From the NCBI GenBank assembly GCA_043814765.1, contig JBDRJQ010000029.1, positions 80,821 to 144,820 of the forward strand: a stretch of 64,000 nt of DNA, given 5' to 3'. This document shows, piece by piece, positions 23,119 to 26,100 of this stretch. A program made the position numbers and the translations under genes. The stretch is from Nanobdellota archaeon. Lineage in GTDB: Archaea; Aenigmatarchaeota; Aenigmatarchaeia; QMZP01. The stretch's first letter is position 1. Every line of letters begins with the position of its first letter. The notes beneath the pieces are model-generated. The model did no database searches. It was given only the letters and a program-made list of their open reading frames with translations, and was not told where the DNA came from.

Positions 23119-26100
23119 ATGAAGTGTCCTTTCTGTTTTGATGAAGAAACACGGGTTATAGATAAAAGAGAAAGCGGAGAAAAAGGTATCAACAGGCGAA
23201 GAAGAGAGTGTTTGAGTTGTAAAAAAAGATTTACTACTTATGAAAGAATTGAAGGTGCCATAAGCAAGATTACTCATATAAAAAAAAGGGACGGCCAGAT
23301 AGTTGAATTTGATCAAAACAAAATAACAGATGCCATATGGAAAGCTGTACAGGCTGTTGGCAATAAAGATAAAGAAGTAGCTAAAAAGGCTTCTGATAAT
23401 GTTGTTAAAATTCTAGAAGAAAGGTTTGAAGGCAAAATTCCTGAAGTGGAACAAATTCAGGATATTGTTGAAGAATCGTTAATAGAAAACGGTTTAGCAG
23501 AAACTGCTAAAGCGTATATAATATACAGACAAAAAAAGATACAGGTAAGGGACACTAAAAAAACCTTAATAGATGTTATAGATACTATATCCGATTACCT
23601 TGATCAAAAGGATTGGAGAGTAAGAGAAAACAGCAATGAGCAATACTCTTTTTCAGGACTTCTATTATACACTGCTGGAAAGGTCATGGCAAACTATAAT
23701 TTAACAGAGATGTACACCCCGGCAATGGCCGATGCACACAGGGCAGGTTATTTGCATATACATGATTTGTCACATGGTGTTATAGGATATTGTGCTGGTT
23801 GGTCGTTAAAGAATCTTTTATCCTGGGGGTTTGGTGGAATACCTAACAAAGTAGACTGCAAACCATCAAAACACATGAGTACGGTAGTGCATCAAATGGT
23901 TAATTATATTGGATGCTTGCAGATGGAGTTTGCAGGTGCTCAGGCCTTTTCAACAGTTGATGTATTGCTAGCGCCCTTTGTAAGGGCAGATCAGATGACA
24001 TTTAAACAGGTAAAGCAGGCTATGCAACAGTTGATTTTCTCGTTGAATATCCCTTCTAGATGGGGATGTTTTAGTAAGGATACTGAATTATTAACAAATA
24101 AGGGATGGATGTTAGGAAAGGATCTTGAAAAGGGAGATATAATAGCAACTTTTAATAAAGACACTGAAGAGATAGAGTATCTTCCTGTAAAAGAAATGAC
24201 AAAATATAATTACAAAGGAAAGATGTGTAGATTGAAAAATAGGATTACGGATCAACTGGTTACACCAAATCATAGGATTTTGAGAAGAATACATAATTAT
24301 AAGGAAGGCGTGTCTGAATCTAAGTATGTTTTTGAAGAGGCAGATAAATTAAAGACAAAGATTCCATTAGTTCCTCTTGGAGGAAAGTTTAAAGGTCTTG
24401 ACCTTGATAAGGATCTTGTCAAATCACTTGCTTGGATAATATCAGAAGGCACACTTTGCAAGAATGAAAGAATCGGTATACACCAATCATTTGTAAAGAA
24501 TCCTGAAAATTGTCAAGATATACGAGACTCTTTAGATTCTATTGGTGTTGATTTTGATGAACAGATAAAACAATCTGGTTTCACAGAAAGATGGGATTGT
24601 TTGCGCATCAGAATGAGCAGACCAGATTCAAGAAATTTCTATGAAAATTATTTTCCTGATTATGTAAAAAGTATTCCAGACGAACTTAGAAACCTTTCTA
24701 CTCCGTTGGCCAGAACATTTATTGATACTTATATGAAAGCAGATGGATGGTATCCTGAAGGTAAAATATACACAAAAAATAAAGACGATATAGATGCTTT
24801 CCAAGAAATTATAGCTAAAGCTGGTTGGGGAAGTACAGTATTGAAAAATAAAAATGGTATTTATGTGATAAGAGTAATAAAACACAATCACACTCAGATA
24901 ACTTCTATAGATAATGAAGATTATGATGGACTTGTTTGGTGCCCGACAACAGACAACGGGACTGTTATAGTTAGAAGGAAAGGTAAGGTTTTTATAAGCG
25001 GCAATTCACAGTACCCATTTTCAAATCTAACATTTGATTGGTCAATACCAAAGGATCTTGAAAACGAACACGCAATTGTCGGAGGAACACCTCAAAGCTT
25101 TACTTATGGGGACCTTCAGGAAGAAACTAATATGATTAACAAAGCTTTTTTAGAAGTTATGCTTGAGGGTGACGCAAATGGAAGAACATTCTCGTTTCCA
25201 ATACCAACATATAACTTAACAAAGGATTTCGATTGGGATGGTGAAAACGCAAATCTTCTGTTCGAAATGACTGCAAAATACGGAACTCCTTATTTTCAAA
25301 ATTATATAGGAAGTAATCTGGATCCAAGCTCTATAAGGGCAATGTGCTGCAGATTAAACATAAATCAAAAAGAGCTCGTACAGAGACCAGGGCACATATT
25401 TGCAGCAGGCGATTCTACTGGTTCAATTGGTGTAGTAACAATGAATCTGAACAGGCTGGGTTTTGAGGCCAAAGATGAAAGCGAGTTTCATAATAAAATT
25501 GAACATTATATGAACATGGGTAAAGATTCTCTTGAAATTAAAAGAAGAGTTGTTGAGAAAAACTTAAAAAATGGGTTAATGCCTTATACAAGAAGATATC
25601 TAGGGTCATTCAGTAATCATTTCTCTACAATAGGTTTGGTCGGAATGAACGAAGCGTGTCTAAACCTTATTGGAAAGGATATATCCACACCTGAAGGTAA
25701 AACTCTTACAATAAACATGTTGAAGTTTATGAGAGATGTTATCGGAGGTTATCAGCAAGAAACTGGTAATCTTTACAACTTGGAAGCAACGCCCGCTGAA
25801 TCGGCTTCATATAGACTGGCAAGAGCTGATAAAAAAATGTATCCGAACATAATTACAAGCGGTGATAAACAACCCTTCTTAACAAACTCCACTCAGCTTC
25901 CTGTAAATTTTGGTGATGATGTCATATCCGCTTTAGAACATCAAAATGATATACAGTATTTATACACAGGAGGGACAATATTTCATACATTCTTAGGTGA
26001 AAGGGTTAGCAGTGGAGAGTCATGCAAAAATCTTGTTAGAAAGATAGCAAACAACACTAGAATACCATATTTCAGTATAACACCAACATTCAGTGTTTGC

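Follow-up and report, generated by a model that had tools for sequence, protein, structure and literature searches.

An archaeal class III ribonucleotide reductase that carries the DNA-binding ribbon of NrdR and probably switches off its own gene

The fused protein and its promoter

The window analysed here is a stretch of 64,000 nucleotides from a Nanobdellota archaeon (assembly GCA_043814765.1, contig JBDRJQ010000029.1), and its subject is a single open reading frame (ORF) on the forward strand, 23119..26166, that joins the zinc ribbon of the repressor NrdR to an ATP-cone and the body of a class III ribonucleotide reductase (RNR), NrdD. From the ATG at 23119, which is preceded by a Shine-Dalgarno-like GAGGT (23107..23111, forward strand), the frame runs without a stop until 26166 and encodes 1015 amino acids, which bears out a fusion that had been proposed from the letters of the DNA before any database search (hereafter the sequence-only reading). 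The architecture was assigned with Pfam and whole-protein profiles. NRDD, PRK08270 and TIGR02487 all scored above their cut-offs on the fused ORF (513, 949.5 and 447.5 bits), and the NrdD body possesses an NxN flap (NSN, residues 171-173) and a finger loop (MCCRL, residues 742-746).

The ribbon comprises residues 1-42 (23119..23244, forward strand), with cysteines C3, C6, C31 and C34. It matched the Pfam profile PF22811 (Zn_ribbon_NrdR) over 42 of 42 positions with 57.2 bits against a cut-off of 27.2, and 25 of its 42 residues are identical to those of E. coli NrdR in a PDB alignment counted by hand, so that both the family assignment and the identity count of the sequence-only reading stood. 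The DNA contacts known from the S. coelicolor NrdR structure (R12, D15, R17, R26-R29 and R37; PMC9110341) are all present in the window ribbon, with the NrdR numbering unchanged. Among 62 sequences combining a ribbon with an enzyme-type cone, D15 is conserved in 61 and R17, R27-R29 and R37 in all 62, while position 12 is mostly a lysine, as in free NrdR; this set was recruited with ribbon queries and therefore leans to intact ribbons, and the chimeras P0106 and P0119 were excluded from it.

The ATP-cone (PF03477; residues 53-139, 23275..23535, forward strand) is of a different descent. It scored 125.3 bits on a profile of the cones of unfused RNRs vs 8.2 bits on a profile of the cones of free NrdRs, the two profiles having been built from 26 free NrdRs of the same order and from the 19 unfused reductases lying behind them. 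A PDB search with the cone alone recovered the NrdB of L. blandensis (5OLK), the NrdDs of S. thermophilus (9D3X) and P. copri (8P23) and the NrdA of P. aeruginosa (5IM3), and no NrdR (E 0.1). The closest solved cone was that of L. blandensis NrdB, at 41% identity and a root-mean-square deviation (rmsd) of 1.8 Å, and the closest solved cones bind two nucleotides. The AlphaFold model (mean predicted local distance difference test score 80) shows two domains joined by a low-confidence linker at residues 45-48; NrdR fitted the whole model at an rmsd of 8-13 Å, and RNR cones fitted the cone at about 2 Å. In addition, K56, R57, Y133 and R137 occupy the positions at which P. copri NrdD has its nucleotide-binding Lys/Arg and Tyr/Arg. 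A two-copy complex prediction of residues 1-145 scored 0.14, below the mark of 0.42, and was left out of the evidence. Thus, the cone profile scores, the PDB matches and the AlphaFold comparison assign the cone to the enzyme and not to NrdR. The sequence-only reading had seen a complete NrdR architecture here, and this part had to be given up, as the whole-NrdR model TIGR00244 reached 70-76 bits on the window protein, below its cut-off of 124.65.

On these comparisons, the window protein consists of an NrdR ribbon grafted onto the allosteric cone that belongs to the enzyme. It classifies as a split class III RNR rather than as an NrdR, and it is predicted to work like NrdR. It shares with NrdR (TIGR00244; PF22811 plus PF03477; S. 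coelicolor 7P37, E. coli 9FXK) a ribbon with same-numbered DNA-contact residues followed by an ATP-cone, and an RNR promoter at which two 16-bp boxes stand 16 bp apart. Unlike NrdR, which is free-standing and 140-220 amino acids long, it is part of a chain of 1015, its cone is of RNR type without the NrdR C-terminal motif, and it comes from a DPANN archaeon, where the promoter has a TATA-like element. With cone-bearing NrdDs (PF13597, PRK08270; P. copri 8P23, S. thermophilus 9D3X) it has in common the ATP-cone, the NxN flap, the finger loop and an adjacent NrdG, whereas the extra N-terminal ribbon, a glycyl-radical loop on a separate 58-residue ORF and a probable intein set it apart from them.

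An archaeal TATA-like element, TTTATATA (23028..23035, forward strand), was recognised in the sequence upstream of the gene, 16 nt ahead of the first of two NrdR boxes. Transcription in archaea starts about 25 nt downstream of the TATA element, and the start is thus expected inside box 1, so that the boxes would cover it. Box 1, CTACTACATCTTGGGG (23052..23067), and box 2, ATACAAGATGTAGTAT (23084..23099), each have six of six conserved positions (C4, A6, A8, T9, T11 and G13) and are separated by a 16-bp spacer, 32 bp centre to centre. The six highly conserved positions follow the rule of PMC13584703; in bacteria, two boxes are required and their spacer is 15-16 bp (PMC12051234). By the six-position rule, the window pair is the sole pair with 12 of 12 positions and a 15-16-bp spacer in the 859-kb genome, where 0.08 are expected. 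We also scored it with a matrix trained only on 44 sites ahead of free nrdR genes, with the free NrdR of G018 left out of the training set; at 21.9 bits, the pair ranked first among 602 upstream regions and first genome-wide. By position and spacing, the inverted repeat at 23053-23099 is a canonical NrdR box pair overlapping the predicted promoter. Outside the window, a lone strong NrdR-like box (G000:C28:71192-71207) lies at the end of a 680-residue ORF; it has a weak partner and no reductase nearby.

Ribbons and boxes among relatives

Of the 61 genomes of the order, 50 possess one ribbon above the cut-off, 27 as a free NrdR and 23 in a long frame, and never both; the free NrdRs mostly lie directly upstream of a reductase. 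Across the phylum (201 genomes), one ribbon was found in 103, of which 22 have it in a long frame. The 27 free NrdRs contradict the sequence-only premise that NrdR is only bacterial. Published statements on this point differ: NrdR is reported in 22% of archaeal genomes in PMC13584703, and is called absent from archaea in bioRxiv 10.1101/2025.03.28.645925. A database search with residues 1-60 recovered at least 120 long proteins, and among the matches listed (120 of 126 long proteins) were 116 NRDD, 2 class I/II reductases and 2 probable chimeras. An assembly artefact was rejected as the source of the fusion, since it recurs in 23 of the 61 genomes and in 118 of the 120 listed proteins. In a scan of genome contigs, the fusion was present at 1 of the best 80 loci, the remainder being mostly unfused reductases. 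The window genome itself (859 kb, 88.2% complete) has one NrdR ribbon, one ATP-cone and one NrdD, and no class I/II reductase was found in it.

Three architectures were distinguished: ribbon, NrdR cone and enzyme cone (two-cone form); ribbon and NrdR cone; and ribbon and enzyme cone, the type in the window. In this order, they account for 5, 0 and 18 of the 23 genome fusions and for 31, 38 and 52 of 121 listed proteins, the window protein and the chimeras included. The source labels of the fusions include Woesearchaeota, Nanoarchaeia, Heimdall- and Gerdarchaeota and one Methanosarcinales contig. We built a FastTree phylogeny of 198 NrdD bodies, starting from 297 rows, from which we removed 87 that were too short or outside class III and 12 more that were gappy or identical. 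The four states changed 16 times on this tree vs 105 times with shuffled labels, and fused vs unfused changed 10 times; the tree is unrooted, so that gain and loss of the fusion are indistinguishable in these counts. According to the tree, the fusion states are clustered, but there were several separate events of fusion or re-fission.

Several members of the family differ in body or label. A ribbon-plus-enzyme-cone module sits on a class II-type reductase in G039 (G039:C2:91600, L037), which has a box pair of 35 bits, and also in P0032. A contig labelled uncultured Methanosarcinales (L084:4998-) has the same fusion type as the window with a 41-bit box pair, and its body is nearly identical to that of P0028, in a cluster labelled Woesearchaeota, as in a transfer or a mis-binning. 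P0051, P0065 and P0071, from Asgard archaea with Heimdall- and Gerdarchaeota labels, are whole NrdRs fused to a distant NrdD subtype, and two JGI proteins of two-cone form are auto-annotated as reductase/NrdR. P0106 and P0119, in which NrdR is joined to a leucyl-tRNA synthetase or a chaperonin on one contig each, are probably assembly chimeras. Many relatives have stand-alone ATP-cone proteins of 90-110 amino acids, and none was found in the window genome; one of them, G012:C17:33296-33598 (L226:296-598), precedes the class II reductase of that genome by about 5 kb. Free-standing ribbon-plus-enzyme-cone proteins were set aside as mere candidates on short contigs.

Across these genomes, the matrix and the position rule place the boxes where the ribbon is. 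A box pair of at least 19.7 bits lies within 400 nt of 13 of the 18 window-type fusions; two more have pairs at 14-15 bits and three have none, the best chance matches of the matrix being 14.9 and 13.8 bits. All nine two-cone fusions have a pair, one of them at 420 nt and one at 15.7 bits. As a control, we took 28 ribbon-less genomes, in which none of 29 long ORFs with a cone exceeded 4.9 bits within about 1.5 kb; these ORFs were taken as reductases by cone and length and some may sit inside operons, and another 14 of the 42 ribbon-less genomes, without a cone at E 1e-15, fall outside this comparison. Within the same order, none of nine in six ribbon-less genomes exceeded this score (one has only 47 nt upstream); G025 was not counted as ribbon-less, its NrdR being cut by a contig end. 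The published six-position rule, which is independent of the matrix, found at least 11 of 12 positions in 12 of the 18 fusions vs none of the 29 controls. In family f4, boxes were present in the fused G039 and in none of four ribbon-less genomes, and in family f11, in two fused genomes and in none of eight ribbon-less ones. Where the free nrdR gene is located elsewhere (G002, G004 and G029), the boxes are at the reductase and not at nrdR. No free NrdR above the cut-off was found in the 18 genomes with a window-type fusion (63-96% complete), that is, in the window genome or the 17 others, when a separate nrdR gene was sought. Between G000 and G001, synonymous sites are saturated, yet both keep 12 of 12 box positions.

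The three window-type fusions without boxes of their own have lost the NxN flap and the finger loop, and their bodies are catalytically dead. They are located at G012:C23:147720-149630 (L053/L199), on G019:C111 (L201) and on G034:C90 (L200), and one of them is MBI2675182.1, filed as hypothetical. The two complete dead bodies, in G012 and G019, also lack the zinc site and the glycyl loop, and that of G034 ends at a contig end. No separate glycyl peptide was found for any of the three, and NrdG above the cut-off was present in none of the three genomes vs two of two controls. Compared mutually and with the intact fusion of G006, the dead fusions are 60-74% identical in the ribbon, 70-73% in the cone and 37-43% in the body. 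In the one pair used for substitution rates, G012 vs G034, the ratio of nonsynonymous to synonymous substitution rates (dN/dS) was about 0.06 for the ribbon (dN 0.041, dS 0.68), 0.01 for the cone (0.009, 0.79) and 0.18 for the body (0.100, 0.55); the body dN of G000/G001 was unreliable owing to inteins and was not used. All three genomes have a box pair on another contig, 284-327 nt before a class II reductase (21.7, 31.0 and 20.9 bits in G012, G019 and G034). In the tree, the dead fusions fall, on long branches, inside the intact window-type fusions (support 99). These exceptions are the strongest evidence of the comparison. Read most simply, they suggest that ribbon and enzyme cone together form a repressor that acts in trans, a role that would have preserved them once catalysis had gone.

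Repression by the enzyme and competing explanations

Control of RNR is taught as two layers in two proteins, with NrdR acting on transcription and the enzyme's ATP-cone on activity. In the window, both layers appear to share one chain and one cone. Because the repressor's DNA-binding ribbon is in the chain and the repressor's boxes lie before the gene, this archaeal enzyme is probably a repressor of its own gene. Binding of the boxes by the fusion, in one form or another, is very likely. The sequence-only idea of a self-regulating trigger enzyme was strengthened by comparison across genomes, through canonical boxes, the absence of a free NrdR and the tracking of the ribbon by the boxes. The fuller model, in which the window protein is a class III RNR and also a dATP-coupled, NrdR-type repressor of its own operon, we regard as reasonably likely.

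In the NrdR tetramer, the cones join subunit A to B and C to D, the ribbons join A to D and B to C, and one ribbon pair occupies each box (PMC9110341); the two cone-bearing NrdDs with solved structures both form a cone-cone dimer in response to dATP (PMC11226230, PMC12662201). Given these pairings and the nucleotide-binding residues kept in the window cone, we propose that the first contact, corresponding to the cone-cone contact of NrdR, would be provided by the NrdD dimer and the cone-cone pair that dATP induces in it, and that the ribbons of two dATP-loaded enzyme dimers would cross-pair and clamp both boxes. High dATP would then stop catalysis and transcription via the same cone.

Several observations weigh against the dATP-coupled model or blur the evidence for it. 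The NrdR switch needs features of its own cone, namely mixed ATP/dATP loading, the Y128 flip and a C-terminal four-helix bundle (PMC9110341), and the window cone is without them. The cones of P. copri NrdD take two ATP or two dATP, never both (PMC11226230). S. thermophilus NrdD remains a dimer with dATP (PMC12662201), and a tetramer would therefore have to be built through the ribbons. Among the 15 box pairs of window-type fusions, two (G007, 14.7 bits; G023, 14.2 bits) fall inside the range of the best chance matches. The spacer between the boxes is 14 bp in G012 and G034, a length that is barely tolerated, and the second reductases of G012, G026 and G054 have no boxes. Of two fusions with the NrdR cone only, one has a weak pair (11.7 bits) and one has none (-5.9 bits). 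Moreover, the genomes are related and incomplete (63-96%), so that the counts are not independent and no P value is given.

The explanation that survives best beside the dATP-coupled model is that the full-length enzyme represses via the boxes without nucleotide control, sensing the amount of enzyme, with the cone acting on catalysis alone. The loss of the NrdR-specific cone from the window protein would suit it, as would the low confidence of the predicted linker at residues 45-48 and the larger surface buried by ribbon pairs than by cone pairs in NrdR (PMC9110341). However, the cone is the most conserved part of the dead G012 and G034 proteins, in which there is no catalysis left to regulate, and we consider this explanation unlikely. 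It has also to be considered that proteolysis or frameshifting yields a short product of ribbon and cone that acts as the repressor, with the enzyme body taking no part in DNA binding; we judge this rather improbable. A 100-kDa subunit would probably be bulky for a tetramer that bends DNA sharply, and a slippery A_AAA_AAG stands at codon 139, where the window cone ends; but only 1 of the 18 same-type fusions has this heptamer, the dead bodies are kept at about 640 amino acids under purifying selection (dN/dS about 0.18, one pair), and the short ribbon-plus-enzyme-cone proteins in the databases come from contigs of 0.7-2 kb and mostly end mid-sequence, consistent with fragments.

The sequence-only reading had also allowed that the ribbon might serve nucleotide-dependent oligomerisation. 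In its present form, this explanation has the ribbon co-opted for oligomerisation or stability and the boxes as relics of an ancestral nrdR-nrdD operon, in which they would have stood at the same place; ribbons do dimerise in NrdR (PMC9110341). It is disfavoured and seems to us very improbable, since the base-reading D15 and R17 and the arginine run are near invariant, the boxes are kept as well (12 of 12 in G000 and G001 despite saturated synonymous sites), and in three genomes they stand at a gene other than the fusion. That a real free NrdR is missing from the assemblies and binds the boxes is the least probable explanation of all, for although the window genome is 88.2% complete and every genome is a metagenome assembly, none of the 18 genomes of this type shows one and all 50 ribbon-bearing relatives have a single ribbon, free or fused.

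For the dATP-coupled model, a history can be proposed from the architectures. An nrdR-nrdD operon would have given a two-cone fusion by read-through, followed by loss of either the NrdR cone, as in the window, or the enzyme cone; in one lineage, catalysis would later have been lost and the protein retained as a repressor of the class II reductase gene. In its widest form, the proposal is that a reductase became its own dATP-sensing transcription factor, using one cone for catalysis and for DNA binding through a grafted ribbon, with several origins among archaea that have small genomes, on enzymes of class III as well as class II, and one lineage leading to a dead-NrdD repressor of a class II gene in trans; we lean towards it only slightly.

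The relatives would then form a full series, from operon through two-cone fusion and either single-cone fusion to dead-enzyme repressor, a rare natural record of how an enzyme can become a transcription factor. The trigger enzymes PutA, BirA and NadR likewise combine an enzyme and a DNA-binding repressor of its own pathway in one chain, as is predicted for the window protein. Unlike them, the window protein has taken its DNA-binding domain from the enzyme's dedicated repressor, with the enzyme cone replacing the repressor's homologous sensor, and all of the fusion steps are still visible among relatives. The mobile ATP-cone fusion of L. blandensis NrdB (5OLK) also illustrates that this cone type works in new hosts; there, however, the cone moved to another subunit, while here a DNA-binding ribbon moved onto the cone. 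Current structures attribute the NrdR switch to the special cone of NrdR, and the fusion raises the question of whether a cone of the enzyme type can drive it too. The fusion also suggests that searches for free NrdR miss part of the NrdR regulation in archaea, and it gives a predicted function to proteins filed as hypothetical, such as MBI2675182.1. No description of a ribbon-RNR fusion was found in a full-text literature search, the scope of which left out most subscription papers and all supplements. In the portions of text consulted, PMC13584703 contains 'fused' or 'fusion' 0 times, the RNR extension survey PMC9669993 contains 'NrdR' 0 times, and PMC3019208 describes no such fusion.

The split NrdD and its neighbourhood

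The C-terminal zinc site and the glycyl-radical loop of the window NrdD are not in the same chain as the rest of the protein. The loop (YSRIVGY) is encoded by a separate ORF of 58 amino acids (26168..26344, forward strand) that matches PF13597 positions 526-562 and has its own Shine-Dalgarno sequence, GGAGGT, at 26155-26160. The break falls inside the C-terminal zinc site (26098-26344); G001 and G010 are split identically, and about 10 further database proteins terminate at the same position. Since G001 and G010 share the split, the window NrdD is probably a working split form. No description of a split class III RNR was found in the available portions of PMC9669993, PMC2795772 and PMC4390871.

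Residues 317-629 (24067..25005, forward strand) are a probable intein, a label suggested by a gap in the PF13597 match and Cys...Asn/Ser junction motifs; the Pfam search of the fused ORF gave no intein match. A same-genus NrdD of 1443 amino acids indicates more insertions than in the window NrdD. Downstream lies the NrdG activase (26398..28575, forward strand; TIGR02495, 201 bits against a cut-off of 131), with an intein of its own at about 26608-28092 (PF14890, PF14528).

Alternative products of the fused ORF were also considered. No ATG, GTG or TTG occurs between ribbon and cone in the window, and such codons are present in 6 of the 18 same-type fusions at varying positions, so that an internal start at the cone was rejected as the general case. 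A programmed frameshift after the cone was likewise rejected as general, given the slippery heptamer (23533-23539 in the window) in 1 of these 18. Finally, no RNA run was listed among the public sequencing runs holding this sequence, and a 151-nt contig from a public DNA run, which may be the source sample, is identical to positions 23018-23168 and stops before the ribbon-cone junction.

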